Positions 180 to 55,772 of a stretch of DNA of 64,000 nucleotides are shown here, one piece after another (within the stretch, counting starts at the first letter, position 1; every line of letters begins with the position of its first letter). Under the pieces are notes generated by a model, which worked only from the letters and a program-made list of their open reading frames with translations, was not told where the DNA came from and did no database searches. The DNA lies in assembly GCA_937936355.1 (NCBI GenBank), contig CALDDM010000005.1:10336-74335 (forward strand), written 5' to 3'. Position numbers and translations under genes: made by a program. The stretch is from Minisyncoccota bacterium. Lineage in GTDB: Bacteria; Patescibacteriota; Minisyncoccia; Moranbacterales; GCA-2747515.

Positions 180-1586
180 CTATTGGATCTCCTTTGGATC
201 AGCGCCCTTTTTATATACCACCGGATCTTTTTGCTGCCATTTTTCTAAAACTGGCATCATAACCTTCCACGCCGCGTGTACCTCCTGTGTGCTTGCAAAG
301 AGGACCTGATCGCCAATCACCGCGTCATATAAAACACGTTCATAGGCATCAATCTCATCAATCTCAACTTCTTCTTGGTGATAAGAGAATGTAAAATCTT
401 TGGGTGTAATTTTATTTTCGAATCCATGTATCTTGGCAAAGAATCGCACAGTTATCTTTTCACTGGGCTGTATATCAAAAATTATTTGATTATATTGACC
501 CTCAATATCGCTATCACACAAACACGGTAATGGCTCTTTCAACGTCACTGTTATACGCGTCGACTTTTCCCTCAAGGCCTTTCCGGCACTCAAAATGAAA
601 TCTGCCCCACGCCACTTATCACTATCAATCGTTCCATGTAAACGGAAGTACGTTTCAGTCTGTGAGTTGGCGCGCGCGCCCTCAATGCTCTTGTACCCCA
701 TGTACTGACCTTGTACAGATATTTCAGCATCTGCATCAAGAACAGTTCTCTCTAGTACGCTCCCACGTTGCTTGCGTACATGATGTGCGTCAAACACACC
801 TGGGTTATCCATCGCTACTAGCGAAAACATTTGCAAAAGATGATTTTGACCCACGTCTCGCAAAGCTCCAATGCCATCGTAGAACTTACCACGCGTGTCC
901 ACATCTATTGTTTCATGTAATTCTATCTCAATTTTTTTTATGTACTCACCATTCCATATTGGTGCAAAAAGAAGATTGGCAAATCGAAACATAATAATAT
1001 TCTGCACTGTCTCCTTTGCGAGATAGTGGTCTATGCGATAAATTTGCTCCTCCTTAAAGAGTCTCCCCAATAGGTCGTCAAGCTCTCTTGCACTTACCAG
1101 ATCGTTGCCGAATGGTTTTTCGATAAGTACGCGCGTCCAACCATTTTCGGAATCACAAGTCTGTGCCAGACCACTATTATGCAAGTGCTCTAAAAGTGAC
1201 TCATAGAATCGTGGTGACACACTCAGATGAAAGATTTTATTTGTACATTGACCAATGTCATCATCAATCTTTGCAAGCTCACTACGCAGTCCCGTATAGA
1301 GCTCTTTAGTATCGAAGGATCCTCGCACATAACGTACTAGTGATAAAAACTCATTTTTTTTATCATCCCCTCCAACAAGATGCTCTGACACAAGTTTACG
1401 AAATGATTCTTCCGTGTAGTCACTATGCGCTGCACCGACAACTGCAAACTGTTCTGGTAAACGATTTTTTTTGTAGAGGTCGAAAAGTGATGGAAAGAGC
1501 TTCTTCCTTGATAAATCGCCTGTTCCCCCAAAAATTACAAAGACAGTAGGAATATTAAACCGCTTTGACTTTTCATTGTTGTTCAT
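180..1586 (-). CDS. zwf: glucose-6-phosphate 1-dehydrogenase
   Basis: Motifs FVIFGGTGDLSRKKL (NADP site), EKPFG and RIDHYLAKETVQNI (G6PD active-site signature). The ORF track extends to 1625 via a TTG. The ATG at 1586 (MNNNEKSKRF...) is the likelier start. Confidence 0.9.
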   Translation of the reverse strand: MNNNEKSKRFNIPTVFVIFGGTGDLSRKKLFPSLFDLYKKNRLPEQFAVVGAAHSDYTEESFRKLVSEHLVGGDDKKNEFLSLVRYVRGSFDTKELYTGLRSELAKIDDDIGQCTNKIFHLSVSPRFYESLLEHLHNSGLAQTCDSENGWTRVLIEKPFGNDLVSARELDDLLGRLFKEEQIYRIDHYLAKETVQNIIMFRFANLLFAPIWNGEYIKKIEIELHETIDVDTRGKFYDGIGALRDVGQNHLLQMFSLVAMDNPGVFDAHHVRKQRGSVLERTVLDADAEISVQGQYMGYKSIEGARANSQTETYFRLHGTIDSDKWRGADFILSAGKALREKSTRITVTLKEPLPCLCDSDIEGQYNQIIFDIQPSEKITVRFFAKIHGFENKITPKDFTFSYHQEEVEIDEIDAYERVLYDAVIGDQVLFASTQEVHAAWKVMMPVLEKWQQKDPVVYKKGADPKEIQ

Positions 1587-1682
1587 AATACTTTCATTCA
1601 CTACCTTAATACCCTTACCTCGCAAGCTTCGTCATAAACACATCTTTACAACGCCCCTCTTTTTTTATGCTAACCCTTCGCA

Positions 1683-2324
1683 CTAGTCACTTGCATTTTC
1701 CGTTGCAATTGCCAGCTCGTGAATTGCACTCACAGGATCATCTGCTTGTGAAATCGCACTCCCGACGCCAGCAGCGTCCAGCTGCCTTGTGGCAACTTCC
1801 TTTATTGTCTTCATGTTAACGCCACCATCAACACTCACCCATATCTCTGTGCGCCGATCCCTTATGAAGGGTACTTTCTCAAGCATCTCCTCTATGAACG
1901 GTGCGCCCTGTTTCCCCGGCACGACTGTCATGATTTGCACAGCATCAATCTCATCCATATAGGTGTAAATCTCTTCAGGATGCGTCTGTGGCGCCAATGA
2001 AATACCCTTTGTAAAATCATACGGATCCATTGCGCGCAAGACCGCAGAAGGACTCTCCACTGCACCAAAAGAGAAGTATACGCGATCTGCGCCGATTGCA
2101 CTGCATGCATCAAAGTATTTCTCAGGATTTGTCGTCATGAGATGTACCTCAATTGCTAAGTCATCCAGCTCGCCCACCACATCCCCCAGATTAAATGTCT
2201 TAGCATCGGTCATTGTACCGTCCATCACATCGATCTGAATCCACGGCACAACACTGCGAATAGCCTCAATTTGCCTGACTGCGTCTTCGCTCTTTTTTGT
2301 CAATATCGCTGGTACAATTAGCAT
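1683..2324 (-). CDS. rpe: ribulose-phosphate 3-epimerase-like protein (divergent)
   Basis: 213 aa TIM-barrel pattern IDVMDG, HLM, MTVVPGKQGAPF and VDGGVN as in the Rpe family. Pentose-phosphate gene neighbourhood. Confidence 0.7.
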   Translation of the reverse strand: MLIVPAILTKKSEDAVRQIEAIRSVVPWIQIDVMDGTMTDAKTFNLGDVVGELDDLAIEVHLMTTNPEKYFDACSAIGADRVYFSFGAVESPSAVLRAMDPYDFTKGISLAPQTHPEEIYTYMDEIDAVQIMTVVPGKQGAPFIEEMLEKVPFIRDRRTEIWVSVDGGVNMKTIKEVATRQLDAAGVGSAISQADDPVSAIHELAIATENASD

Positions 2325-2345
2325 CTCTTTATCATAAGTATATTA

Positions 2346-3776
2346 TCACCCTCGTAATCCAAAAATATTTTTTACGAGATTTTTTTTACGTGCACTATAA
2401 CTTTTTGCACGGAACTGATCTGCACAGTTCCTTAGCCCATAGCTGTATGTTGGATATGCATGAATTGTATCAGAAAGCTTTGTTATAGAAATATTGTTTT
2501 GCATTGCAAGCGCAATTTCATTGATCATTTCGCCTGCTGGTCCACCCACAATCGTAGCTCCTACAATCAAGCCTTTCCGATTTGTGATTATGCGGAAGAA
2601 ACCCTCCTGGGCAACGTCTGTGATCGCACGATCTACAAAATCATACCCTTTGTCAAATACATAATGAGACTTAGGATCAAACACATTGTCCTGCGTGGAG
2701 ATTCCAATTGAAGCAACCTCCGGAGCCGTGAACGTCGCTCGAGGGATAACCTTACTCATCTTCGCTGGTATGTGAAAAATGATGTTTGTCAACGCCACCT
2801 TTCCCATATGATTTGCATAGTGTGTAAACTTCCACGGCGTTGCAACATCGCCTACCGCATATATATGCGTGACTGTTGTTTGTGTTTTCTCATTTACTTG
2901 TATTCCCTTTCTCACATCGTACTCTACACCTGCCTTTTCAAGACACAAATTCTCAACATTAGGCTGTCGTCCGACAGCAACAAGAATCTCGTCTGCTATA
3001 ATTTCTTGAGATTTATCTTCAGTATCATTCTTTATTGTGACAACTTTCTTGCCATCGCGCACAAACACTTCGCGTACTTCACTCTTGTAAAAAATATTGA
3101 TGCCATCGGACTTTAGAGACCTGTCAACAATTTCTCCAGCTTCTTTTTCATCACGTCCCAACACAACCTCATCACGCGTAATGATATTTACAGCAACTCC
3201 AAGTCGCGCAAATGCCTGTCCCAACTCACATCCAATTGGCCCACTCCCAATTATTGTAAGGGATTTAAATGTGTCAGCCTCAAAAATTGTACGATTTGTC
3301 TTTGGATTTACGGACGCAAGGCCTTTGATAGGCAGGTCGGCAGGTCGCGCTCCGGTTGCGATTACAATTTTTTTCCCACTAATATTTTTACCATTAACCT
3401 CTACAGTATGAGAGTTCACAAAACGAGCGAAGCCCATTTCAATGTCAACTCCATTTCTCTTGATCTCTTCTGGATCCTCAAATCGATTTTCAATATCTGC
3501 AACCACATTACGAACATGTGCCAGAACAGCGTGCACATCACAATCAGTATCTGACATAGAAGATAAGCCAACTTTTTCTCGTTCATTGCTGGCGTGCGCA
3601 ATATGCGCTGCTTTGATCAGCGCCTTTGACGGGATACATCCATAATGCGTGCAGTCACCCCCGAGCTTCTCTCCCTCTATCAGAATCACTCGCGCGCCAA
3701 TACCTGCAGCTCCGATTGCTGCTGTCAGTCCACCGCCCCCAGCTCCAATCACCACAATGTCATAGTCGTAAGCCAT
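2346..3776 (-). CDS. class-I pyridine nucleotide-disulfide oxidoreductase (Lpd/GR/MerA-like)
   Basis: N-terminal FAD fold VVIGAGGGG, redox-active GGDCTHYGCIPSK (CxxxxC), second Rossmann IIGSGPIGCE and C-terminal dimerisation motif IHAYPT. Substrate cannot be assigned. Confidence 0.8.
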   Translation of the reverse strand: MAYDYDIVVIGAGGGGLTAAIGAAGIGARVILIEGEKLGGDCTHYGCIPSKALIKAAHIAHASNEREKVGLSSMSDTDCDVHAVLAHVRNVVADIENRFEDPEEIKRNGVDIEMGFARFVNSHTVEVNGKNISGKKIVIATGARPADLPIKGLASVNPKTNRTIFEADTFKSLTIIGSGPIGCELGQAFARLGVAVNIITRDEVVLGRDEKEAGEIVDRSLKSDGINIFYKSEVREVFVRDGKKVVTIKNDTEDKSQEIIADEILVAVGRQPNVENLCLEKAGVEYDVRKGIQVNEKTQTTVTHIYAVGDVATPWKFTHYANHMGKVALTNIIFHIPAKMSKVIPRATFTAPEVASIGISTQDNVFDPKSHYVFDKGYDFVDRAITDVAQEGFFRIITNRKGLIVGATIVGGPAGEMINEIALAMQNNISITKLSDTIHAYPTYSYGLRNCADQFRAKSYSARKKNLVKNIFGLRG

Positions 3777-3805
3777 GTAATAATATTTTCTTTATAAGCC
3801 TGTGA

Positions 3806-3823
3806 TGTAAAGAATACTTTACA
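3806..3823 (-). promoter_or_regulatory. perfect palindrome TGTAAAG-AATA-CTTTACA overlapping the putative -35 (TTTACA) of the oxidoreductase gene
   Basis: Read directly. Lies 30-47 nt upstream of the ATG at 3776. Member of a 4-site motif family (see 10687, 36145, 46987). Confidence 0.5.
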
Positions 3824-3853: not shown

Positions 3854-4672
3854 TTAACTATGCTCGTCATCATACTCCTGATAAATGATCGCACCGCACA
3901 TCTTGCAGTGCACTGCATTATAGTCATGGTACTTCAATCCGCATTTACCACATGTTATAGATTGCTTTCGCGAAGAAAGCATATATAAACGAATGAGCGA
4001 GCTAAGATAAATAGGGATCAGAAACAAGCTAGAGATAATTACGCCGACGATCAATAGCCTTCCCTGTGGCGTGACTGGCACGATGTCGCCGTATCCCACT
4101 GTTGTCATTGTTACAACAGCCAAATAGATCGCATCATCAAAGGAATCGACATCCTGATTCACTCCTTTTTCAAACGTATAAAGCAGAGAGGCCGCCATAT
4201 AAAGAAAGACAAGGAAAGATGCTACGATCTTAAAGATTAAGGCGAATTTTTTTGCCCTTATGCGATGCGGATACTTTTTGGTATAGCGATCCAGAAAACG
4301 AAACATCTTGAGCACACGAAATCCTCGTAAAAACTGCAATGAAGGCGCGCCGATAAAAAATGGAACGATAGCCAATACGTCAATGATGTTTGCAAGTGAA
4401 AAACTATACGCCAATCGCTTATGTGCATAGTAAATGCGTAGAAAAACTTCAATCACAAAAACTCCCATGATGAGTGTGTCAGCATGATGAATAATTTTCA
4501 ACAGATCCTCTGGCAACGGATATGTCTGCAACACAAAAAAGATTACACTTATCCCAATGAGGACTAGGAGTATGGTATCAAAAATTACATTGCCATAAGC
4601 ATCTCTGTCGTCACGGAAAAGCTGTGCAATATTTTTCTGACTAAAGAAACGTTTTGAGCGAAATTTCTTCAT
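3854..4672 (-). CDS. voltage-gated-type K+ channel with C-terminal zinc-ribbon
   Basis: Selectivity filter TTVGYGD, S4-like segment LRGFRVLKMFRFLDR with a basic residue every third position, and a six-TM layout. C-terminal CGKCG...HCKMCG four-Cys ribbon. Confidence 0.75.
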   Translation of the reverse strand: MKKFRSKRFFSQKNIAQLFRDDRDAYGNVIFDTILLVLIGISVIFFVLQTYPLPEDLLKIIHHADTLIMGVFVIEVFLRIYYAHKRLAYSFSLANIIDVLAIVPFFIGAPSLQFLRGFRVLKMFRFLDRYTKKYPHRIRAKKFALIFKIVASFLVFLYMAASLLYTFEKGVNQDVDSFDDAIYLAVVTMTTVGYGDIVPVTPQGRLLIVGVIISSLFLIPIYLSSLIRLYMLSSRKQSITCGKCGLKYHDYNAVHCKMCGAIIYQEYDDEHS

Positions 4673-4773
4673 GCAGTCATTATATCATTGGGTCAAAAAA
4701 ATAGAGAATGTCATTGCAATTACATTGCGGCGTTTGCATTAGAACTTGTAATCATCATAAAGAATAAATCATT

Positions 4774-5424
4774 TTATTGATCAATTTTTTTACCAATGTA
4801 GCTCAACACTACGAGACCAACGATACCCATGCCAAGTGTGATGGGACTCAGTGCACCCAGACCTTTACCCAGCACAACAAATGCAGCCGTGCCTGGTATC
4901 AGGCCGATAGCTGTGCCTAGGATGTAGTCTTTGGCACGGACACATGTAATGCCAAGTAAATAATTAATAATATTAAATGGAAAGACAGGAATAAGTCTGA
5001 TTGCGATTACAGTCAGCATGCCCTTTTTTGCTATCTTTTGGTCGAATTCCTTCACGCGTGGGTATTTCGGCAGTACCTTGTCACTCAAATATTCACGAAA
5101 TAGGTAGCGACCTATATAAAATGCAGCGACTGCCCCCAAAACATTACCAATCCACGCGATCGCAAGCGCAATGAGAAATTGCCCAAACCCTCCGGTGAAA
5201 ATACTCCCCGTGAGTAGCGTTAGAGGTGCTCCAGGCAAAAGAGTCACCGCACCTATAATTTTTGCACAAACCAGTGCCAGCGCTACAAGGAGCACATTTT
5301 CAGTAGCATTATTCTTTAAAAGGTCCAAGATACCCAATAGAGTCTCCTTATTGATTAATGCGCAGATAATTAGTCCAACCCAAAAAACTGCAGCAACCAC
5401 TTTCCTCATGTCTCTTTTTTGCAT
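4774..5424 (-). CDS. TVP38/TMEM64 family (DedA superfamily) membrane protein
   Basis: 216 aa polytopic. Motif LLPGAPLTLLTGSIFGGFGQF is typical of SNARE-associated/TVP38 proteins. Confidence 0.6.
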   Translation of the reverse strand: MQKRDMRKVVAAVFWVGLIICALINKETLLGILDLLKNNATENVLLVALALVCAKIIGAVTLLPGAPLTLLTGSIFTGGFGQFLIALAIAWIGNVLGAVAAFYIGRYLFREYLSDKVLPKYPRVKEFDQKIAKKGMLTVIAIRLIPVFPFNIINYLLGITCVRAKDYILGTAIGLIPGTAAFVVLGKGLGALSPITLGMGIVGLVVLSYIGKKIDQ

Positions 5425-5428
5425 TTTT

Positions 5429-5878
5429 TTAGCTTAACAAATCTTGTGCCTTTTTTATGCGTCTCGCATATTTTTCTTGGTCTGAGAAATCAATAATCAA
5501 AAAATGCTTAATGGCCTCGATAGCAGCATCATAATCAACGAATCGCGCACCTAGAGAAAGAATATTAGCGTCATTGTGCTCTCGTGCCAACTTTACAATC
5601 TTTATGTCATGACCATAGTACACACATGCACGACTGCCTCGCACTCGATTTGCCGCTATCGCTTCTCCCTGACCCGATCCGCCAAGAATAATGCCACGAC
5701 TACCAGGATTTGCCACAACCGCCTTAGTTGCGGGAACAACAAAGTCAGGATAATCATCTTGCGCCGCGTAAGCATAGGCACCAAAATCTTTCACTTGATG
5801 GTTATTGTCCAAAAGCCACTGCACAATTCTTTCCTTAAGCTCAAAGCCCGCATGGTCAGAACCAATATATATTTTCAT
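5429..5878 (-). CDS. rpiB: ribose-5-phosphate isomerase B
   Basis: MKIYIGSDHAGFELKE N-terminus and GIILGGSGQGEAIAANR are typical of RpiB/LacAB. Confidence 0.85.
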   Translation of the reverse strand: MKIYIGSDHAGFELKERIVQWLLDNNHQVKDFGAYAYAAQDDYPDFVVPATKAVVANPGSRGIILGGSGQGEAIAANRVRGSRACVYYGHDIKIVKLAREHNDANILSLGARFVDYDAAIEAIKHFLIIDFSDQEKYARRIKKAQDLLS

Positions 5879-5912
5879 TTTTTTGTATTAATACTTTTAT
5901 TATAGTAAATAA

Positions 5913-6371
5913 TCAGAGACTCTTTTTCTTCAACAGATATTTTTGATGATATTCCTCTGCAAGATAAAAATCTGAGATTGGCAATATTTCTGTTGCATAG
6001 AATACGCCATCCTTTTGCTCCCCAGCCTCTTTCAAGTCATGCGCGATCCTACGTTGCTCTTGATCCTCATAAAAAATAACGCTTCTGTATTGCGATCCCA
6101 CGTCTGGACCCTGTCGATTGACCTGCCAAGGATCATGCATTTTATAAAATGCATCTATAAGGTACTGCGTTGGCAGTAATGCAGTGTCGTAGAGTACACG
6201 CGCAACCTCCGCATGTCCAGTTTTTCCTGTGCAGACTTGTTCATATGTGGGATGAGCGATCATTCCTCCAGAGTAGCCTACATCTGTTTCTCTAACACCT
6301 TTGATTATCCGTATTTTTTCTTCAATACCCCAAAAGCAACCAGCGCCAAGAACGATTTTTTTTTCACTCAT
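5913..6371 (-). CDS. msrA: peptide-methionine (S)-S-oxide reductase MsrA (cytoplasmic form)
   Basis: GAGCFWGIEE catalytic motif and no signal peptide. The start is taken at the ATG at 6371 (MSEKKIV...), because the longer ORF to 6416 would overlap the upstream gene. Confidence 0.85.
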   Translation of the reverse strand: MSEKKIVLGAGCFWGIEEKIRIIKGVRETDVGYSGGMIAHPTYEQVCTGKTGHAEVARVLYDTALLPTQYLIDAFYKMHDPWQVNRQGPDVGSQYRSVIFYEDQEQRRIAHDLKEAGEQKDGVFYATEILPISDFYLAEEYHQKYLLKKKSL

Positions 6372-6388
6372 AGCAATTACGTAATACC

Positions 6389-7021
6389 TTACTCTTGTAA
6401 CAATTTTGATACCCACTCACTCATCTCTTGATAAGCACCTTCACCGAAATGCGTGTGTCGAATATTACCTTTTTTGTCAATGAGGTAATGTGCAGGCCAA
6501 TAACGATTATTGTAATTTCTCCATGTGGCAAAATCATTGTCCTGCGCGATGGGATATGTAAGGCCATGCCTCAGAACCTCTTTGCGCACATTCTCGATCT
6601 TTCTTTCATAGGCAAACTCTGGCGCATGTAATCCAAGGATCACAAACCCATCATTTCCATACTTCTCATATAAAGCCTGGACATGTGACAAAGTACGAAT
6701 ACAGTTTATGCAGCCATAAGTCCAGAAATCGATCAAAACAACCTCTCCCCTCAGCTCCTCAAGTGACAAAATTGGCTCACTATTTATCCAATTTGTTAAC
6801 CCGATAATTTCTGGCGCCCGTATTTGTGCAGACTGCATTGTATTGTCAACAGATTCCTCTGTGACCGAAGAATTTTCCACACTCTCCGAAGATTCTTCTC
6901 TGGCATCTTGTGCGCCATGGCTACCTTGAATATCTTGATTAGATTTCTCTTGCATAGCTCCATCAGCTGCTGCGCAACCCGAGATTATAATGAGCACTGT
7001 GATGATAAAAATGTTCTTCAT
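6389..7021 (-). CDS. exported thioredoxin-fold lipoprotein (DipZ C-terminal/redoxin-like)
   Basis: Lipobox IISGC after an N-terminal signal. WTYGCINC CxxC thioredoxin-fold motif followed by a redoxin-like region. Confidence 0.7.
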   Translation of the reverse strand: MKNIFIITVLIIISGCAAADGAMQEKSNQDIQGSHGAQDAREESSESVENSSVTEESVDNTMQSAQIRAPEIIGLTNWINSEPILSLEELRGEVVLIDFWTYGCINCIRTLSHVQALYEKYGNDGFVILGLHAPEFAYERKIENVRKEVLRHGLTYPIAQDNDFATWRNYNNRYWPAHYLIDKKGNIRHTHFGEGAYQEMSEWVSKLLQE

Positions 7022-7057
7022 AGAAAAATACTATTACTGCAACTGCACATTACTTTA

Positions 7058-7705
7058 TTAACTCTCTATGAGGTCGAGAAAGTGCTGTTGCGTAATATCC
7101 TGTCCGTGGAGTATTGAGTGCAGTGAACCATCGCGATTAATGAGGGCTTTTGTGTTTGTAAATCGAATGCCATAGTGGCGCGTCACAACATTGTCTTGCA
7201 TGACTAGAGAGAGTGTCGTTGGTCGGTTTTGCAGATATCTTCGCGTTGCCGCCTCAGAGTCAATCCCTATCAAAACAACTTCTACTTGATCGCCGTATTG
7301 CGCCTGTAATGCCTCCATTTTTGGGAGATTGCGACGACAATTCGGACAATGCTCTGCAAAGAAATCAACGATCACAGGCTTTACTTCACGAAAGTCAGAA
7401 AGTGTAAATACCTCTCCCGGACGGTCTAAGTGCGCAAGAGAGAAATCTGGCGCGTAATCAATCAATGGAGCTGCAGGAGTATTCTCAACCTCTACAATCT
7501 CTAGGCGTTCAGGGTTTTCTTGGATGCTATCATCAACGCCAAATCCGTTATTTTCTGTATCAGACACAGGAAGTGGTATTTTTTGGGAAAGATCATTTTT
7601 TTTTGCAGCGTCACTAGACATGACACGATCCCTGCTAATATAAAAACCAAGAGCAACAAAGCAAAGAATTAAAGAGCCAAGAAAGATGAAGATTTTTTTT
7701 CTCAT
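7058..7705 (-). CDS. membrane-anchored TlpA/ResA-like thiol-disulfide oxidoreductase
   Basis: N-terminal TM helix and a thioredoxin fold with FFAEHCPNCRR CxxC motif. Confidence 0.7.
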   Translation of the reverse strand: MRKKIFIFLGSLILCFVALGFYISRDRVMSSDAAKKNDLSQKIPLPVSDTENNGFGVDDSIQENPERLEIVEVENTPAAPLIDYAPDFSLAHLDRPGEVFTLSDFREVKPVIVDFFAEHCPNCRRNLPKMEALQAQYGDQVEVVLIGIDSEAATRRYLQNRPTTLSLVMQDNVVTRHYGIRFTNTKALINRDGSLHSILHGQDITQQHFLDLIES

Positions 7706-7721
7706 GTAATTTTTTCGTTTA

Positions 7722-8372
7722 TTACTCGACCACTAAACCTTCAGGATACTGCAAAGAAAATTCACCAAGAGTGCTAATGTCAAAAGGTAAAAAAGTGAGA
7801 TCTTTAGACAAAGCTTCATCAACAACAAGTTCCTTGCCAGATGCGCTCGCCCAAAACCTACTACCACCTCCTCTACTTTCCAGAACAAGAGCCCCATCCC
7901 ACAAAGCATCAGTCGCCTCAAAATAGACAGATGCTCCGCCAAGAACGCGACTTGCTATCACTGCCGTCTCACATGTCGCACAAAATGCCACAAGTATTGG
8001 CTGTCCACTTATGCTATCGTTGATAACCTCATACCTACTCAACAGATCAAATGAGTAAAAAAGATGGCGTGTGCCAGCAGAAGCAACAATACCTCGCTGT
8101 GAGGACTGTGATTCTGCTTGTGCGACACTGATTCGCGCTGGATAGTCTATAGATGAATCAAGCAAGCCTCCAACCACCTTCTTGCTGAGTTGTTCAGAAA
8201 GAACGGTAGAATCCATTCCACGATCGATCAACACTTGCTCAACGCTCACGTTTTGTGATTGATTAAAAGCAACAGCTAGGCCAAGTAATCCCACAAAAAG
8301 CAAGGCTATTACCCATTTTTTTTTCTGAAATATTTTCCACAGCATAGCAGTGAGCTTATTGAAACCTCGCAA
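7722..8372 (-). CDS. DUF3179-like exported protein (short form)
   Basis: N-terminal TM anchor. ILVAFCATCETAVIASR aligns with the Cys-x-x-Cys core of the neighbouring DUF3179 paralog. Confidence 0.5.
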   Translation of the reverse strand: MRGFNKLTAMLWKIFQKKKWVIALLFVGLLGLAVAFNQSQNVSVEQVLIDRGMDSTVLSEQLSKKVVGGLLDSSIDYPARISVAQAESQSSQRGIVASAGTRHLFYSFDLLSRYEVINDSISGQPILVAFCATCETAVIASRVLGGASVYFEATDALWDGALVLESRGGGSRFWASASGKELVVDEALSKDLTFLPFDISTLGEFSLQYPEGLVVE

Positions 8373-8395
8373 AAGCAGATAGAATCATAATACCA

Positions 8396-9403
8396 TTATT
8401 TATGTAAGTCAGTGTCAGGATGTATACTCACCCACGAGATCCAAAAACTCGGAATTGCTGTAAGCTGTATTTCTTTTACATCTGTTATGTCATAAAATTC
8501 TGCAATGCCCTTGCGAGCATTAAATGTTACACGTAATTTCCGATCGCCAATAACATCCTCAAATGATTGATCTCGCTCTAGAGCACTAACGAGATAAGCC
8601 TTTGACTTTCCACCAACAATCAATCCCAACACAATATCCGTTTTTTCCAAACGATCATCATCACCTGAAAATCGAAATATTGGCTCAATGTTTCTCAGAT
8701 CACCACCATATGGCACACTACTGTACCCAAAGATCTTTTTGTGATTCTCATCCCCTATAAGCACTTCGCCCTCTGGAAAATTTTCTACAAATTTCTTGTA
8801 CTGTGTAATATCAAACCGTACTATATCAAGCTTTTGCCCGGAAGCAGGTCCAACAACAGCCTCACCAAGTGCCTGTGACCACAGTGACTCTGGGTTACCC
8901 CTGTTATACATCAAGAGATTTGACTCCCACAACTTCCCTGATACACCAAATTCCTGCTTTGTGCCATCCACTTCTGGATCAAAAACAATACCTGTAAAAC
9001 ACAGTGGGCAATATGTAACAAGTAACGACTCACCTTCAAAGGTATCATTGACTATTTCATGAGAAACAAGAATCTGGTAGGGGTAAAATCGGGCTTTTCC
9101 ATTGCGCTCGATCACAATGCCATCACCATCTGCATTCATCCAATCTGGCACATCACTCACGAGCGCGTATGCAGGATTGTCAATTGGCTTGATGCCGTCT
9201 TTTGGTACGCCACCACTCAAAATCTCACTCAAGTCTATTGATGCGCGAACACCATCTTGCTCCAGAAGGTTATTTACTGAATTTGGTTCGTTGATATATA
9301 CATCGCCAGACACATCAGATTCAAGACTAATAGGCTCCGAAATAGTACTCGAACATCCCGATAATGTTGCAGTCACAAGCCCTACAAAAAATAATCCCCT
9401 CAT
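8396..9403 (-). CDS. DUF3179 family lipoprotein
   Basis: Lipobox LSGC. DGIKPIDNP...LLVTYCPLCFTGIVF...VSGKLWESNLLMYD-like pattern is characteristic of DUF3179. Confidence 0.65.
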   Translation of the reverse strand: MRGLFFVGLVTATLSGCSSTISEPISLESDVSGDVYINEPNSVNNLLEQDGVRASIDLSEILSGGVPKDGIKPIDNPAYALVSDVPDWMNADGDGIVIERNGKARFYPYQILVSHEIVNDTFEGESLLVTYCPLCFTGIVFDPEVDGTKQEFGVSGKLWESNLLMYNRGNPESLWSQALGEAVVGPASGQKLDIVRFDITQYKKFVENFPEGEVLIGDENHKKIFGYSSVPYGGDLRNIEPIFRFSGDDDRLEKTDIVLGLIVGGKSKAYLVSALERDQSFEDVIGDRKLRVTFNARKGIAEFYDITDVKEIQLTAIPSFWISWVSIHPDTDLHK

Positions 9404-9417
9404 AATCTCTATGCAAA

Positions 9418-10344
9418 CTAGTTACCAAACTTCTTGACATATTCATAAGCACTCAGCGTTGCCTTGATCGCATCCCCGACAGCAATATTATTCTGCTTAT
9501 ACAGCTCATCAGTTACGTCGCCAGCAGCATATATACCGTTCATACTTGTGGAAAATGTACGATGATCAACAATGATTTCTTCTCGATCATTTAGATCAAC
9601 AAGCCCTTTACACAACGAACTATTTGGAACAGTTCCAATCTCTACAAAAACACCCTGTACCGCCAGTTCTTTTTCTTCATTCGCTTCTTTGTCTTCGTAC
9701 AGCAAAGACTCTACCATTGCACTACCAGAGATCTTGAGAGTATTCGTCTTATAGAGAATCTCAACTTTTCCTGAATCACGAACAATTTTTTGTGTAATGG
9801 GATCTCCACGCAGTTCATCACGACGCGCTAGCAAATATACTTTCTTTGCATACGGTAGTAAATCAACAACACTCTCAAGTCCGCTATTGCCACCACCCAC
9901 AACTGCAACATCCTTATCACGAAAAAATGGTGCATCGCATGTTGCGCAGTACGCCACTCCCTTGCCATTGAAATCATCTTCTCCAGGCACGCCCAACTTT
10001 CGATGACGACCACCAGTGGTGACTATAACTGTTTTTGTTTTGTAGACATCTTTTTTTGTTTTCACCAAAAACATATCACCATCACGTTCAATGCTAGTCA
10101 CTGTATCTTGTAAAGATAAACTTATATCTTCTTTATATGACTCCAGGTGATCCTTGAGTTTCTTGGCTAACTCAGGTCCTGGTATTAGGATATCGCCAAT
10201 CCAATTTGCAATACCATCGGATACAACGCTTTGCCCACCTATCTGGTCCGCCACGAGCATCGCTTTCATTTGTTTGCGAGCAGCATACACGCCTGCAGCA
10301 ACTGCTGCTGGACCACCACCAACAATGATTGTGTCAAAAACCAT
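9418..10344 (-). CDS. trxB: thioredoxin-disulfide reductase
   Basis: IVGGGPAA FAD motif, redox-active CATCDAPFF, VVGGGNSG NADPH motif and GIYAAGDV. Confidence 0.85.
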   Translation of the reverse strand: MVFDTIIVGGGPAAVAAGVYAARKQMKAMLVADQIGGQSVVSDGIANWIGDILIPGPELAKKLKDHLESYKEDISLSLQDTVTSIERDGDMFLVKTKKDVYKTKTVIVTTGGRHRKLGVPGEDDFNGKGVAYCATCDAPFFRDKDVAVVGGGNSGLESVVDLLPYAKKVYLLARRDELRGDPITQKIVRDSGKVEILYKTNTLKISGSAMVESLLYEDKEANEEKELAVQGVFVEIGTVPNSSLCKGLVDLNDREEIIVDHRTFSTSMNGIYAAGDVTDELYKQNNIAVGDAIKATLSAYEYVKKFGN

Positions 10345-10389
10345 TCTAATTTTTATTACGTATTATGTTTCTAAACTACAAAGAGATGC

Positions 10390-10635
10390 TTAAAGTGAGA
10401 GAAGTTTTGTTAGTTTTTCTTGGTCAAAACCGACGACCACCTCTTCTGTTCCATCCTCTCTTTCAATCATGGTTACGGGCACACCCATTTGACCAGTCTT
10501 TTCAACCATTTGTGTCGCAGCTTCCTGACTCTCGGATATATCGATCTCCTTAAACTCCACTCCCTTTTCGAGAAGGAATTCTTTCTCCATTTTGCAATAA
10601 CCACATGATGGTGTTGAGTATACTGTTATATTCAT
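10390..10635 (-). CDS. NrdH/glutaredoxin-like small redoxin
   Basis: 81 aa with the STPSCGYCK CxxC motif near the N-terminus and a GVPVT motif. Confidence 0.75.
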   Translation of the reverse strand: MNITVYSTPSCGYCKMEKEFLLEKGVEFKEIDISESQEAATQMVEKTGQMGVPVTMIEREDGTEEVVVGFDQEKLTKLLSL

Positions 10636-10662: not shown

Positions 10663-10704
10663 ATTATATAAGAATGTCTTCTATGATGTCAAGTAGACTT
10701 TACA
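10663..10704 (-). promoter_or_regulatory. sigma70-like promoter of the nrdH-trxB operon with upstream TGTAAAG element
   Basis: The minus strand reads TGTAAAG-TCTA-CTTGACA, then 18 nt, then TATAAT. On the plus strand the 18-bp element is 10687-10704, TGTCAAG-TAGA-CTTTACA. Confidence 0.5.
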
Positions 10705-10747
10705 TCTTATTATCCACAAGCACCTGCTCCTATGGGATCATTTGCGA

Positions 10748-24815: not shown

Positions 24816-24979
24816 TCGACCTCCCGGTCTGTAAATTATTGGTGAAATATCACGTAATAATGCAAATTGAAAATGCTATCTTTCTTATTAGGAGTACACT
24901 GTAAAATCACTTTGTTAAAGTTCAAAATATTTATATCATACTTTATATTTATTGTCAAATACAATATGAAAATGTAAAT

Positions 24980-25056: not shown

Positions 25057-25785
25057 ATGGGATACGACTTTAGCTTTTTTGGCATTGTGAAATTGTTGTT
25101 CACAAACCCAATGGCTTTGGTACTTGTTATACTTGTGATGCTGGCTGTCTACCTCTATTTTGATGAGGCGATCAAATCAGTCATCGCACATATTTTTGGC
25201 TTTCTAGATAAGCTGCTTGGGCCAATGCTTTCTGAAGTAGGCAAACGCTTGAGAGAGCTTTTCACTAGTTGGCGGCGCATCGGCGCCTTGGCGCTCGCAT
25301 TGCTGCTCGCTTTTGGAGGATATACCTTCATCACCAACAAACCTGCACGTATGGCAACAGCACAGGACAATCTCATTGAGTCCGTCTACAAGATGGCAAG
25401 CAGTGATGGATGTGTTGTCACAGTTGATCCGTATGATGACGGTGAAGACAGGACGTTTCATACGCGTATCACCTCTACGAGTAGCGGTGATAAACAGTCG
25501 TTCTCAGTTGACCTGTTCACACCCAGAGAAGGTGCCATCGCATTTGCCGACAAAGAGAACCGTGAGGAGAAATTCTCACTCACAAAAGCTGATGACGGCA
25601 ACTGGAAGATTTCCGGTGCAAAAGAAGCATTTGCGATCTCTGTTTTGGAGAGAAGCGTTGGACAGGAATGCCAGGTCATCAAGGAAGAATCTGTGAAGGG
25701 AGCGGACTCACAAGATACACCTTTTGATAATACACCTGGCACATTTACTCGAATTAAGGAAAGAGTAAAGTTCTGGGGTAAATAA
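25057..25785 (+). CDS. orphan membrane-anchored protein
   Basis: 242 aa. Two to three N-terminal TM helices followed by a soluble beta-rich domain. It is the only plus-strand gene of the block. Confidence 0.5.
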   Translation: MGYDFSFFGIVKLLFTNPMALVLVILVMLAVYLYFDEAIKSVIAHIFGFLDKLLGPMLSEVGKRLRELFTSWRRIGALALALLLAFGGYTFITNKPARMATAQDNLIESVYKMASSDGCVVTVDPYDDGEDRTFHTRITSTSSGDKQSFSVDLFTPREGAIAFADKENREEKFSLTKADDGNWKISGAKEAFAISVLERSVGQECQVIKEESVKGADSQDTPFDNTPGTFTRIKERVKFWGK

Positions 25786-28038: not shown

Positions 28039-29774
<1,736 letters not shown>

Positions 29775-29788
29775 TTACTTCTTCACTT

Positions 29789-29816
29789 ATTGTACTGCTC
29801 TAACAAAAACTGTCAA
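29789..29816 (-). promoter_or_regulatory. sigma70-like promoter of groEL
   Basis: The minus strand reads TTGACA, 16 nt, TACAAT, immediately upstream of CIRCE. Confidence 0.6.
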
Positions 29817-29875
29817 GACTTTACCTATAAAATCCCTCCCTTCATTTTGACCCTGTTGTCAGACCTCATTTTTCG

Positions 29876-34853: not shown

Positions 34854-36092
34854 CTAGCGGAAGAGGTCAGTGAAATTCCCATATCCTTGTGCCTCTAGCT
34901 CTGATACAGGCACAAAACGCAGTGCCGCGCTATTCATGCAGTGTCGAATCCGATCATTCCATTCTGGTCCATCTAATATGATATGCCCGATGTGATTATC
35001 AGCGATTGCACTGCGAATTTCTGTCCGCACCTCCCACGGCAGTTTCCGGTCTTCATGTTCCGTCACAACACCCTCTGCAATTGGTTTATAAAAGCTTGGC
35101 CAGCCTGTGCCAGAATCATACTTATCTTTTGAGGAGTATAGCGGTTCTCCAGAAATAATGTCCACATAAATACCTGGTTCCTTGTTATCCCAGTATGGGT
35201 TGTGAAAAGGTCTTTCTGTACCCTCGTGACGCGTTACTTTGTACTGCACATCAGTTAATTTCTCACGCATCTCGTCGTCGGAAGGTTCTTTGTAGTTTGT
35301 ATAGTCAAGTGAAAAAACGGGTTTGTCTCGTCCTTCTATATAGTATGGATTTTTTTTCTTGCTCATTTGCTTGTTTTTCATCAGATCTTTTTTTGCCATA
35401 TTGCCGCCTGCATGCGCTTGTGCTCTTACAAGCTCGTTACCCCACACGTCCTCGACATATCGATCTCTCCCAGATGCACCACGGTATATCTTATAGCGTG
35501 ATGGATTTTTCAGATAGTAATCTTGATGGTAGTCTTCTGCTACGTAAAAGATCTTCTCTTGCTCAATAATCGTTTCGATTGGTGCGCCTAAATTCGACTC
35601 ATTACTAAGATCGCGAATCGACCCCTCAATGATGTCTTTTTGCAAGGTGTCTTTGTAGTATACAGCGCTTGCATACTGTGGACCGCGATCACCAAATGAG
35701 CCCCCTGCATCACGTGGATCATGATGACGCCAAAAAACATCTAGTAGCTGTTTGTATTTTACTATGTCAGGATCATAGTAGACTTGCACTGCCTCGCGGT
35801 GTCCGGTGGTACCCGTATTAGACTCTTCATATGTTGGATTTACTGTGTGCCCACCTGTGTAGCCACTAATCGCCTCAATCACTCCATCTGTTTTTTCAAA
35901 ATCTGCTTCCGTACACCAAAAGCATCCGCCAGAAAAAATTGCTGTTTCGTAGGAACTCAAATCAAGATCCCTCTTCTCCTGTAGTGTCACATCCTTGGTT
36001 CCAGAAAACTTAGAAGCAAACTCACTGTATAGTGTGAATGTCACAAGGCCACCAAGTATCCCCAGAACGAGATATGCCGCTTTTCTCTTCAT
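34854..36092 (-). CDS. msrAB: membrane-anchored bifunctional methionine sulfoxide reductase MsrA-MsrB
   Basis: N-terminal TM helix, MsrA motif GGCFWCTEADF, and MsrB motifs GTGWPSF and RHCMNSAALRF. Confidence 0.85.
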   Translation of the reverse strand: MKRKAAYLVLGILGGLVTFTLYSEFASKFSGTKDVTLQEKRDLDLSSYETAIFSGGCFWCTEADFEKTDGVIEAISGYTGGHTVNPTYEESNTGTTGHREAVQVYYDPDIVKYKQLLDVFWRHHDPRDAGGSFGDRGPQYASAVYYKDTLQKDIIEGSIRDLSNESNLGAPIETIIEQEKIFYVAEDYHQDYYLKNPSRYKIYRGASGRDRYVEDVWGNELVRAQAHAGGNMAKKDLMKNKQMSKKKNPYYIEGRDKPVFSLDYTNYKEPSDDEMREKLTDVQYKVTRHEGTERPFHNPYWDNKEPGIYVDIISGEPLYSSKDKYDSGTGWPSFYKPIAEGVVTEHEDRKLPWEVRTEIRSAIADNHIGHIILDGPEWNDRIRHCMNSAALRFVPVSELEAQGYGNFTDLFR

Positions 36093-36144
36093 AAAATAAT
36101 ACTTACTATATCAATATACATATTTTAGCAATATCACCTCATAA

Positions 36145-36162
36145 TGTAAAGTCTACTTTACA
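36145..36162. promoter_or_regulatory. palindrome TGTAAAG-TCTA-CTTTACA in the msrAB/sufS divergent region
   Basis: Read directly. On the minus strand it is followed by 17 nt and TAAAT-type -10 (TAAAAT at 36127-36122). Confidence 0.5.
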
Positions 36163-36181: not shown

Positions 36182-36210
36182 TTGACAGGAGGTGTTATGC
36201 GCAATATAGT
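36182..36210 (+). promoter_or_regulatory. sigma70-like promoter of sufS
   Basis: TTGACA, 17 nt, TATAGT, ending only 9 nt before the sufS ATG. This implies a near-leaderless transcript if correct. Confidence 0.4.
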
Positions 36211-44957: not shown

Positions 44958-46124
44958 ATGCAGAGCAAACACATCATACTCGTCGGTGGAGGGCATACAC
45001 ATGTCTTGACAGTGAACGCTTTGAAAAAAAATCTACCCCCTCATGTAACTGTTACTCTCATCGAGCCGCAAACAGAGGTTCCTTACACTGGCATGCTGCC
45101 TGGGCTCATTGCAGGCCATTACACATCACATGATATTTCTATAAATATGCGTGATCTCTGTGGCACAGACACGAAAATCACCCATATACAAGATCGCGTT
45201 GTTGCAGTGCGCCCACACGAAAATAGCATCGTACTTGCCTCTGGGCAGTCACTTCGCTATGATGCCGCATCGTTTGATATCGGCATCCACACAGAAGCAT
45301 CATCCATCAAAGGATTTACTGATCATGCTACACCAGTCAAGCCACTTGGAGAATTTGCAAGAACGTGGCAGCAATATGTTGCGCGTAGCAATGAGTCTGT
45401 CGGCACAAAAAATCATTATATAGCAATTATCGGTGGTGGGCTCGCAGGTGTCGAAACTGCCCTTGCTATGGCACATAGAATTCATACCCCTCCACTCGCG
45501 TCGCACGACCCACATACAGATTCATCACACATCACTCTTATCGATCAAGGGAGGATTCTCTCCACACTCGGTCAAAGAGCACGAAAATTTCTCCTGGAGG
45601 AACTGCAACGCTACAACATCCACATATATGAAAATGTTGCGGTTTCACAAATCACCCGCACACATGTACACCTTGAGACGAATAAAAAAATTCCTGCTCA
45701 TTTCGTCCTCGGAGCAACAGGGGCTCAGCCATACACATGGCTCAGAGAAACCAACATACCTCTTGAGGAAGGTTTTATCAGTGTAAATGAACACCTCCAG
45801 AGTACGGGCTTTGAAAATATTTTTGCCACAGGTGATTGCACCTCTTTTATCGCGAAACCCCTTCCAAAGGCAGGTGTTTATGCAGTGCGTCAAGCACCAA
45901 CCCTTACACATAACCTCCTTTGCACGCTACAGCAAAAGCCATTGAAAATCTTCACACCACAAAAGCACTACCTCAAACTCATCTCCCTCGGAGAAAAAAG
46001 AGCGTGCGCAGATAAGTGGGGACTCTGTGTTCATGGAAAACCTTTGTGGTTCCTTAAAGACTTTATTGATCGGCAATTTGTCTCGCAGTTCACCGATCAA
46101 AAACAGGATCAAAAAAACCTCTGA
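44958..46124 (+). CDS. FAD-dependent pyridine nucleotide-disulfide oxidoreductase (NDH-2/SQR-like)
   Basis: ILVGGGHTH and IIGGGLAGVE dinucleotide folds and a GDC motif near the C-terminus. Substrate unknown. Confidence 0.65.
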   Translation: MQSKHIILVGGGHTHVLTVNALKKNLPPHVTVTLIEPQTEVPYTGMLPGLIAGHYTSHDISINMRDLCGTDTKITHIQDRVVAVRPHENSIVLASGQSLRYDAASFDIGIHTEASSIKGFTDHATPVKPLGEFARTWQQYVARSNESVGTKNHYIAIIGGGLAGVETALAMAHRIHTPPLASHDPHTDSSHITLIDQGRILSTLGQRARKFLLEELQRYNIHIYENVAVSQITRTHVHLETNKKIPAHFVLGATGAQPYTWLRETNIPLEEGFISVNEHLQSTGFENIFATGDCTSFIAKPLPKAGVYAVRQAPTLTHNLLCTLQQKPLKIFTPQKHYLKLISLGEKRACADKWGLCVHGKPLWFLKDFIDRQFVSQFTDQKQDQKNL

Positions 46125-46193: not shown

Positions 46194-46928
46194 CTAGTTG
46201 CCAAGTGCTTGCTCAATGAGGGCTGTTAGCTGCGCCTCAGGTACCGCACCGTTGACTGGGATTTTTTCATCTCCTGCAAGGATTACGCTGTATGGTGTTC
46301 CCTGTCCACCTGCACGCTGTGCCTGCGCAAGCTGATCTTTGACCTTTTCAGCCATTTTTGGATCTTTACGGCACTCTTCAAATGCAGCAGCGTTAATACC
46401 TAGCTTCGTTGCTTCTGCAGTCACCTCATCAGCAGCTTGTGAGATAAAAAGCTCGTCGAGATAGCTCCAGAAAGCATCATTACCAGCAAGCTTGCCGACG
46501 CATTCAGTTGCAATTGCCTTTGCCTCAGCCTCTGGATGAAGCTGTGCGAGTGGCAAGTGTCGATACACCCAGTTAATCTGACCGTCGTACTTCTCTAATG
46601 CTGTCTTCATTGTGTCATGAAAGCGACCGCAAAAAGGGCAGTCGATATCTGAAAACTCTATCACGCTGACTTTGGCATTACGATCGCCCCGTACCCAATC
46701 GTCTTTTGTCACATCTTCTACAACGATCTCTTGTGGCTCTGCCTCAGCAGGAGGATACGCACCACCCGGCTCTCCAGCAACTCCAGCCGGTGCTCCACCA
46801 CCCGCTACACGTGCAGACTCTCCTATTGCTACCTTACCCATTGCCATGCCGATAAAAAGTCCGAGGAAAACTGTTGCAAATGCAGTCATCGCTCCTAACC
46901 AGAAAACCTGATTACTGAGAATTTTCAT
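46194..46928 (-). CDS. membrane-anchored DsbA/BdbD-like thiol-disulfide oxidoreductase
   Basis: N-terminal TM, a Pro/Gly/Ala linker, and a thioredoxin fold with DCPFCGRFH. Confidence 0.75.
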   Translation of the reverse strand: MKILSNQVFWLGAMTAFATVFLGLFIGMAMGKVAIGESARVAGGGAPAGVAGEPGGAYPPAEAEPQEIVVEDVTKDDWVRGDRNAKVSVIEFSDIDCPFCGRFHDTMKTALEKYDGQINWVYRHLPLAQLHPEAEAKAIATECVGKLAGNDAFWSYLDELFISQAADEVTAEATKLGINAAAFEECRKDPKMAEKVKDQLAQAQRAGGQGTPYSVILAGDEKIPVNGAVPEAQLTALIEQALGN

Positions 46929-46962: not shown

Positions 46963-47004
46963 ATTATATCAAACACTTTAAAAAATTGTCAAACAGACTT
47001 TACA
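46963..47004 (-). promoter_or_regulatory. sigma70-like promoter of the dsbA-like gene with upstream TGTAAAG element
   Basis: The minus strand reads TGTAAAG-TCTG-TTTGACA, 18 nt, TATAAT. On the plus strand the element is 46987-47004, TGTCAAA-CAGA-CTTTACA. Confidence 0.5.
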
Positions 47005-54890: not shown

Positions 54891-55250
54891 TCAAAATAGG
54901 TATGAGAACATACCTTTTACGTTTTTTTCTGTTTCGCATGTCCCGTCACATGCTCCGATAATGTTTTCATATAAGTGTCGGCCACCGATTGGCTGCACAG
55001 TACCGTCAACCACCTCGTTCCAGACTGTTACCATACTTTCTGCATGATGGATGCCATCACAGCCGTAGAGCGTCTCAGCTCTACTGCCATCGCCCCCAAT
55101 CTCTCCCATCTCTATCTTGTACGCTTCAAAGCTTCTGTATGTCAGCCCGAGAGAGCTGGCCAAAGAATCGTTTGCTGCGCGCGTTGCATCGATCGCGTCA
55201 TGATCTGCATCAAGATTTGCGTACTCTGCAGCCTCATTTGTACCTGACAT
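54891..55250 (-). CDS. hypothetical protein
   Basis: 119-aa ORF with no recognisable motif. Confidence 0.35.
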   Translation of the reverse strand: MSGTNEAAEYANLDADHDAIDATRAANDSLASSLGLTYRSFEAYKIEMGEIGGDGSRAETLYGCDGIHHAESMVTVWNEVVDGTVQPIGGRHLYENIIGACDGTCETEKNVKGMFSYLF

Positions 55251-55406
55251 TCAGTATCTCCGTTCTTGTTCTAAGGAAAAAAACACCATACCAATATAAC
55301 ATTTTTTGTATTATTTGTCAATATTATGTTGACAATAAAATTGTGTTGTTGTAGCCTTTGTATATCTTGACGACTCCCGTCAGGCACAAACAGACAGAGG
55401 CTCATA

Positions 55407-55772
55407 ATGGCTGATGTAAGTATAGAAAGCGTCGTAGAAAATATACTTGAGAAATTACTCAATGATGATCTCAGTGTGGCAGAGATTGCACCTGACCTCA
55501 CAGATCTCATATTTCTTTCAAAGAGGTGTAGTGCAGATCTTGATATGGCAAAAAATGAGCTCGAAGAGGCTCTTAAGGAAAAAGCTCATGCAGAGTCACT
55601 AGCTGCAGATCTACGCAGTAGCATTGATCACCTTAAAAATAACAAGCTGGATTCTGAAATACAACTTCGCGCGTTGCATGATTTAGTCCAATCTGCGCGG
55701 AAAAAAACTCGAATTAACAAGGGTGACCTTAATGATATAAGTGTCATCACAGCTTCTCTGACCTCGCAGTAG
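55407..55772 (+). CDS. hypothetical coiled-coil protein
   Basis: 121 aa with a heptad-like charged helix pattern. Followed by a terminator. Confidence 0.4.
   Translation: MADVSIESVVENILEKLLNDDLSVAEIAPDLTDLIFLSKRCSADLDMAKNELEEALKEKAHAESLAADLRSSIDHLKNNKLDSEIQLRALHDLVQSARKKTRINKGDLNDISVITASLTSQ

Follow-up and report, generated by a model that had tools for sequence, protein, structure and literature searches.

The closest described relative of the regulatory element analysed here is the CylR1/CylR2 system of Enterococcus faecalis, in which CylR2 is an established repressor and its release, and hence induction, needs the membrane protein CylR1 (PMC3709268, citing Haas 2002 and Rumpel 2004 for the CylR1/CylR2 work). 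The element is an inverted repeat of 18–20 bp that occurs four times in a 64-kb stretch of contig CALDDM010000005.1 from an uncultured Minisyncoccota bacterium, a member of the Patescibacteria or candidate phyla radiation (CPR); this whole stretch is referred to below as the window. At each of its four positions the repeat covers the −35 box of a promoter that precedes genes of thiol or methionine redox metabolism. We propose, with a probability of roughly 0.75, that a CylR2-like repressor uses these four sites as its operators and through them controls an envelope and cytoplasmic thiol/methionine redox regulon.

Comparison with the cyl promoter, whose sequence was taken from plasmid NZ_CP124896, shows the same design. 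Between cylL-L and cylR1 lies TTGTCAAGTGTCACTTGACAA, that is TGTCAAG-N5-CTTGACA, and TATAAT stands 15–16 nt past the TTGACA half when the cylL strand is read. The two systems have in common a regulator of 66–70 residues with an HTH_3 domain, the CPR version being 48% identical to CylR2 over all 66 residues (BLASTP); a TGT(C/A)AAG inverted repeat whose promoter-proximal half is a TTGACA −35 hexamer; and a small multi-pass membrane partner, needed for induction in the case of cyl, with no phosphorelay. They differ in gene order, which is cylR1–cylR2 in cyl and regulator–partner in CPR genomes, and in the partner itself, since CylR1 has three transmembrane (TM) helices in 94 residues whereas the CPR protein has four predicted ones in about 125. 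Their outputs also differ, the cyl regulon being devoted to a lantibiotic, with the CylLS'' peptide as signal, and the present one to thiol/methionine redox repair.

Exact matches to TGTMAARNNNNCTTTACA are found in the window at 3806–3823, 10687–10704, 36145–36162 and 46987–47004, against a chance expectation of 0.01, and all four stand where the original prediction, made from the letters of the window, had located sites of a common architecture. A search of the window with up to one mismatch returned no site beyond these four (0.08 expected). Read on the minus strand, which is that of the downstream genes, the sites conform to TGTAAAGT-NNN-YTTKACA, and those at 3806 and 36145 are perfect palindromes matched on both strands. 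The last six bases of each site constitute the −35 hexamer (TTGACA or TTTACA) of a minus-strand promoter, and a −10 hexamer follows 17–18 nt after it at all four. Operator 3 (TGTAAAGTAGACTTTACA, 36145..36162), a perfect 7+7 dyad whose sequence is identical on Logan contig L001 from the same organism, provides the −35 TTTACA (36150–36145) of the msrAB promoter, with the −10 read from the sequence as TAAAAT at 36122..36127, 17 nt further on. Operator 2 (TGTAAAGTCTACTTGACA, 10687..10704) provides TTGACA (10692–10687) for the nrdH-trxB promoter and operator 4 (TGTAAAGTCTGTTTGACA, 46987..47004) provides TTGACA (46992–46987) for that of a dsbA-like gene, each followed after 18 nt by TATAAT (10663..10668 and 46963..46968, respectively). 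Operator 1 (TGTAAAGTATTCTTTACA, 3806..3823) is again a perfect dyad, and its −35 TTTACA (3811–3806) is followed after 17 nt by the weaker AAATAT (3783..3788), 6 nt before the ATG; an overlapping −10 variant with an 18-nt spacer is also listed in the promoter/terminator scan. All these features lie on the minus strand. The overlap with the −35 box and the −10 that follows it, weaker at 3806, had been described beforehand and is borne out here; the four sites represent one cis-regulatory element.

As to the central spacer, N4 alone is enriched in the window, N3 giving no match and N5 two, which is the chance level; both variants were dropped, their counts not being above chance. A separate palindrome at 55316–55334, TGTCAATATTATGTTGACA, consists of two back-to-back TTGACA hexamers with a CylR2-like N5 spacing, a type whose count is at chance level, and is located between two divergent small open reading frames (ORFs), 54891–55250 (minus) and 55407–55772 (plus), both without a Pfam match.

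To place the element among the promoters of the window, we surveyed every TTGACA-N16–18-TATAAT-like site, about 17 strong ones of which are intergenic. Within that set, TGTAAAGT at −47 to −40 is found at redox promoters only; the tRNA, groEL and sufS promoters and the other strong promoters of the window are without it. If the element were an extended −35 or a UP-like feature common to promoters of this genome, with no dedicated regulator behind it, this would account for its invariable position on a −35 and for partial look-alikes before groEL and before the ORF at 25057. To this explanation we attach next to no probability, given the restriction to redox promoters and a spacing that is strictly N4. 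The look-alikes at groEL (29811–29825) and at 24974 had been regarded as short-spacing variants; they are single half-sites abutting a −35, not operators.

The element is also retained in related genomes. By TrxB, the nearest genomes are those of uncultured Patescibacteria, the closest being a 'Candidatus Pacebacteria' metagenome-assembled genome at 71% identity, and exact copies of the window's proteins occur on metagenome contigs only. In locus L002 (TrxB 71% identical) the tRNA-Arg/nrdH-trxB synteny is preserved, and ATGTAAAGTCTAyTTGACA forms the longest identical block, and the only long one, of the spacer upstream of nrdH. L126, with NrdH and TrxB about 81% identical, keeps the operator before nrdH. 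The syntenic locus L151, found through the disulfide reductase (71% identity), shares the nrdH-to-gnd gene order and bears operators both before nrdH and before the disulfide reductase (8092), within spacers that are otherwise unalignable. The original prediction had named two outcomes that would refute it, occurrence at most promoters whatever their function and lack of conservation in related genomes, and neither was obtained. Confinement to redox promoters among the roughly 17 strong ones and conservation in L002, L126 and L151 thus define a real, dedicated element, in agreement with the thiol-redox/NADPH regulon put forward in the original prediction. Genes for MsrA/B, DsbA-like and TlpA-like proteins form one operator-controlled operon in L028, L086 and L097 and separate operator-controlled units in the window, which indicates that the regulon has been conserved despite operon rearrangement. 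L084, from another CPR genome, contains a target operon without an adjacent regulator gene.

A consensus was derived from 15 sites, namely 11 that had not been chosen by motif and the four of the window, and reads A-TGTAAAG-T-n-T-A-C-TT-(G/T)-ACA-T. The C at −36 is present in 10 of the 15 and the flanking A/T pair prolongs the symmetry, whereas at the G/T position a perfect dyad is traded against a perfect −35. To judge from these patterns, the second half-site is under selection too and the element is a true dyad.

Evidence for the identity of the regulator comes from a metagenome scan with the pattern TGTAAAGTNNNYTTKACA-N16–18-TANAAT, which yielded at least 120 loci. The 120 listed loci span 25–68% GC and many phyla, and their central spacer is 4 nt throughout. 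In 83 of them (tblastn) no more than 1.5 kb separate the motif from a gene for a CylR2-like HTH_3 protein of 65–75 residues, and most of the others end near the motif. The first downstream ORF encodes a helix-turn-helix (HTH) protein of 64–80 residues in 36 of the 120, with the signature ...LR...G.TQE.LA...GVSRQTI..(I/L)E.G.Y.PS..., and about 30 of those 36 repeat the palindrome once more past the −10, ahead of the start codon. Eleven listed loci have an anchored thioredoxin (Trx)-like protein (WCPxC, with a Met-rich linker) behind the motif, one has a NrdH 81% identical to that of the window and another a CcdA-TlpA fusion. The CPR regulator, of which MREIISNKVYELRSKAGITQEALAEAIGVTRQTIIAIEKGNYTPSVILALKIAKYFKKSVEDIFQIKYEK is an example, is assigned to HTH_3 by Pfam, and among solved structures it comes closest to a 'PbsX family' regulator (9k3w) and to CylR2 itself (1utx, E = 1.4e-11; phmmer against the PDB); by this comparison it is homologous to CylR2. 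More than 2,400 proteins are related to the regulator of L081 at E ≤ 1e-8; those with a named source come from Roizmanbacteria, Kaiserbacteria and the 'Patescibacteria group'.

In several low-GC metagenome contigs (L037:640–700, L108 and L018) the dyad is located in the promoter region 135–190 nt upstream of dnaK, and in L030 it precedes the gene of a DnaJ-like protein; in some lineages chaperones may belong to the regulon as well.

The CPR loci that do encode the regulator link it both to a membrane partner and to redox genes. In L091 an operator is followed by a regulator of 69–70 residues, a four-helix membrane protein of about 120 residues, NrdH, a second operator and Trx-like, CcdA and TlpA-like proteins; in L081 the operator, a regulator and a membrane protein of the same sizes are followed by a CcdA-TlpA fusion. 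Five distinct CPR contigs (L140, L142, L144, L146 and L148) were then chosen by the regulator protein rather than by the motif. All five have the order regulator, Pfam-less 4-TM partner of 121–129 residues, (MsrA), Trx-like, DsbD_TM/CcdA, TlpA-like and (MsrA/MsrB), and in all five an operator with 0–1 mismatch precedes the Trx-like gene. Four of the five have, in addition, an operator copy with 2–3 mismatches 59–99 nt before the start of the regulator gene, a site of autoregulatory type. The background, determined on shuffled sequence, is 0.075 sites per 20 kb at up to two mismatches. The motif is therefore linked to this regulator family, and regulator, partner and redox genes are linked to one another. 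The partner is characterized by an invariant cytoplasmic loop, W-x-E-x3-DERE-x2-H-x4-GR, and by short, Met-containing outer loops. Homology to CylR1 is not demonstrable, the hhalign score not being significant (probability 1.2%, with only a DER motif after a TM helix aligning).

Trx-like proteins encoded behind CPR operators have Met-rich linkers with repeated AMMEK-like motifs (L091:1785–2441, L028 and L084:2380–2937), and cupredoxin, HMA and P-type ATPase genes are found near two regulator loci (L144:263–7005 and L148:4180–4665). Possible signals are copper and hypochlorite.

In this organism the dyad might instead be bound by a protein from a different family (Rex, Crp/Fnr, MarR, Rrf2, ArsR or the like), which would make the association with CylR2-like proteins irrelevant to this genome. 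The regulator gene of this genome is unseen, Pfam scans of about 60 window ORFs (many of them without any Pfam match) having revealed no transcription-factor domain, and the Rex half-site TGTGAA is superficially alike. The Rex box, with the consensus TTGTGAA-N4-TTCACAA or TGTGAA-N6-TTCACA, is likewise an 18-bp dyad with a TGTnAA half-site, and Rex represses redox-related genes by overlapping their promoters. The core of the present element is, however, TGTAAA-N6-TTTACA: by the Rex consensus the spacing of the hexamers coincides but the half-site, TGTAAAG here, does not, and Rex targets serve NADH recycling as opposed to thiol repair. No rex gene was found next to the motif in the annotated CPR loci examined. 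Moreover, every regulator that neighbours orthologous targets in CPR relatives is CylR2-like, and no other HTH gene recurs across the CPR loci annotated. We regard control by another family as very unlikely. In line with the original prediction, the element matches none of the Rex, PerR, OhrR and CIRCE (controlling inverted repeat of chaperone expression) boxes.

Spx activates trxA and trxB in Bacillus subtilis through a short AGCA motif at −44 and is not known to bind a dyad as a dimer. The original prediction had likened to this motif, by its position, the conserved TGTAAAG at about −45, which would then be a monopartite element for a Spx-like redox activator bound to RNA polymerase; the palindrome would be a by-product of a TTTACA −35, of which TGTAAA is the reverse complement. 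In keeping with that model, the left half is invariant and the right half is TTTACA or TTGACA, and the target functions are similar to those under Spx control (thioredoxin system, Msr, NADPH supply), with a conserved element upstream of the −35 in both systems. Several observations speak against it. In about 30 listed loci the complete dyad is also present past the −10, at a position that does not call for a −35; the symmetry continues into the C at −36 and the flanking A/T; and the motif tracks an XRE DNA-binding protein, belonging to a repressor family, in the 83 of 120 listed loci. There is no AGCA-type element at −44, the segment from −47 to −40 being half of a dyad that covers the −35, nor does any scanned ORF of the window match an ArsC/Spx-family Pfam model. 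Together with the near-consensus promoters, these observations leave the Spx-like mechanism hardly tenable.

The arrangement of the sites suggests a mechanism of repression. A homodimeric CylR2-like regulator of about 70 residues (XRE/HTH_3), its gene presumably elsewhere in this CPR genome, would bind A-TGTAAAG-TnTA-CTT(T/G)ACA-T and, because the promoter-proximal half-site is the −35 hexamer, would exclude sigma region 4 and so repress transcription as CylR2 does. Release would probably occur via the small 4-TM membrane partner reporting an envelope signal, as the analogy with CylR1/CylR2 and the invariant CPR gene pair suggest; this partner is likely to be a sensor or an anti-repressor. The regulon would then serve the repair of thiol and methionine oxidation, through nrdH-trxB with exported DUF3179, TlpA-like and MsrA proteins, an exported MsrAB, a DsbA-like protein and, in the cytoplasm, a disulfide reductase accompanied by rpe-zwf(-gnd) as a source of NADPH.

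The same protein could instead bind as an activator of class-II-like type, centred near −39. The centre of the dyad is indeed close to the position of class II activators, and GakR, a homologue of broadly similar type, reportedly acts as a positive regulator and raises bacteriocin production (bioRxiv 10.64898/2026.09.04.749385). The promoters themselves are nevertheless unlike activator-dependent ones: with −35 hexamers that match the consensus fully or at 5/6 positions, good −10 hexamers and 17–18-nt spacers, their near-consensus character argues against activator dependence. The downstream half-site coincides exactly with the −35, so that regulator and sigma would compete for the same bases, and loci of other phyla have a further operator across the start of transcription, at a position past the −10 from which a bound protein can only repress. 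CylR2 itself is, furthermore, a repressor (PMC3709268). From the intrinsic strength of the promoters and the position of the second operator we infer that repression is likelier, and consider activation improbable.

Several points weigh against the assignment to a CylR2-like repressor, beginning with the positive role reported for GakR. Neither a CylR2-like gene nor a partner gene was detected in the 64-kb window (tblastn with six regulator and two partner sequences), in L002 or in the 19.5 kb of L151. The spacer of the cyl operator is 5 nt, compared with 4 nt here, and the 120 listed loci of the metagenome scan are an arbitrary sample. Conserved cysteines are absent from both regulator and partner, hence a redox-sensing chemistry cannot be read from their sequences. 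Finally, the more distant CPR trxB loci L003–L014 (52–57% identity) have no motif, so that membership of nrdH-trxB in the regulon is clade-limited; being motif-free, and thus uninformative, these loci were set aside as evidence of conservation.

The genes behind the four operators were named correctly in the original prediction, according to Pfam and NCBIfam, and every one of the products considered carries a CxxC or CxxxxC motif. Operator 3 precedes msrAB (34854..36092, minus), which is divergent from sufS-sufU; the exported MsrAB product unites methionine sulfoxide reductases A and B in one chain behind an N-terminal anchor (Pfam PMSR and SelR, NCBIfam, CFWC motif). The putative operon behind operator 2 (3854..10635, minus; Pfam, NCBIfam, gene order as in L151) comprises an nrdH-like glutaredoxin gene of the NrdH/YruB type, trxB, two DUF3179 genes, two TlpA/ResA-like genes, msrA, rpiB, a DedA/VTT gene and an ion channel gene. 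Its 3′ end is uncertain because the gaps are short and there is no convincing terminator, the terminator scan being uninformative as to operon limits. Operator 4 precedes the gene of a membrane-anchored, DsbA-like thioredoxin-fold protein with a CPFC motif (46194..46928, minus; Pfam, NCBIfam, motif). Adjoining it on the plus strand, 44958–46124 encodes an 'N-terminal to SelD' pyridine nucleotide-disulfide oxidoreductase (TIGR03169, E = 2e-116) with no operator of its own.

Behind operator 1, the putative operon at 180..3776 (minus; Pfam, NCBIfam) comprises a class-I FAD disulfide oxidoreductase (CTHYGC), rpe and zwf. The gene order in L151 is PNDR-rpe-zwf-gnd, and gnd is accordingly placed, as an expectation from synteny, past the start of the window in the same operon as zwf. 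Inclusion of the NADPH genes zwf and gnd in the regulon is upheld by this operon, not by the degenerate fifth copy at 1633–1650 from which it had been argued. That site has three mismatches, a level at which nine sites are found in the window against 3.5 expected and which we take as chance; it was rejected as an operator for want of a usable −10 and of a counterpart in the rpe-zwf spacer of L151, which contains no operator. It is more likely that zwf is co-transcribed from the site at 3806.

Two genes look leaderless: that of the disulfide reductase, whose ATG lies 6 nt past the −10 (3774–3788), and sufS, whose ATG (36220) lies 9 nt past TATAGT (36205–36210). No Shine-Dalgarno sequence was seen before nrdH, msrAB or the dsbA-like gene.

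Operator 2 is accompanied by a second element, a 9-mer that perfectly matches the DnaA-box consensus, TTATCCACA (TGTGGATAA in the direction of transcription), at 10710..10718 on the plus strand, 5 nt upstream of the operator. The same 9-mer is found beside the nrdH operator in L126, L084 and L151 (in the latter at 869) and, with one mismatch, in L002. Altogether, perfect or one-mismatch copies flank 20 of 188 non-redundant operators of the fetched loci, with about 2.5 expected, and nearly all operators flanked in this way precede Trx-like or NrdH genes in CPR loci; further examples are L028, L072, L091:2511, L097, L142, L144:10846 and L148:7257. The distances are fixed at 4–7 nt, as TTATCCACA-N7-operator in the forward and TGTGGATAA-N4/5-operator in the inverted orientation. 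The 9-mer is absent from the regulator's own promoters examined and from sites 1, 3 and 4 of the window. In L142:10990–11060 and L107:1–70 it occurs on both sides of the operator and creates a palindrome of about 50 bp, TTATCCACA-N7-[operator]-N7-TGTGGAT(AA), which hints at a more extended complex or at another factor that is symmetric.

DnaA boxes are also present in the Escherichia coli nrdAB promoter. Both cases have a consensus TTATCCACA just upstream of a ribonucleotide-reduction promoter, here that of nrdH-trxB; the CPR 9-mer differs in that it also precedes exported Trx-like operons and stands at a fixed 4–7 nt from the operator of another regulator. Throughout Patescibacteria a two-gene sensor without phosphorelay, composed of the CylR2-like repressor and its 4-TM partner, might control an envelope regulon for the repair of thiol/methionine oxidation and have its target promoters, though not its own, co-regulated via a consensus DnaA box 4–7 nt upstream of the operator, a proposal that we consider speculative and rather doubtful. 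If true, it would tie the replication initiator, or a factor reading TTATCCACA, to redox homeostasis in reduced genomes.

To our knowledge, transcriptional control in CPR bacteria is almost unexplored, these organisms having few regulators and not being growable alone, and we know the CylR2 family from one virulence operon. A search of the accessible literature found no earlier description of the regulon or its operator; papers on Streptococcus mutans SMU.405c and on XRE regulators of Clostridium thermocellum studied by DNA affinity purification sequencing were checked and proved irrelevant. Although the kind of system is already known, three of its traits appear to be new, namely the 4-nt spacer in its operator, the range of phyla in which it occurs and the part that it plays in CPR thiol/methionine redox control. 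The regulon would combine a defined operator with a regulator family for which a structure has been solved, a conserved partner in the membrane and a consistent set of targets (the thioredoxin system, exported TlpA, DsbA and Msr proteins, and NADPH from the oxidative pentose-phosphate pathway), which together suggest how CPR bacteria may respond to oxygen or oxidant at the cell envelope. The CylR2 family is widespread and, among the loci listed, its operator is near-invariant across genomes of 25–68% GC, which brings within reach what many 'hypothetical XRE plus membrane protein' pairs do.

A genuine CIRCE element, separate from the operators, is present in the window at 29748–29774, right after the groEL promoter (−35 at 29816–29811). 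Read on the gene strand as TTAGCACTC-N9-GACTGCTAA, it has one mismatch, and its position implies control of groEL by HrcA.

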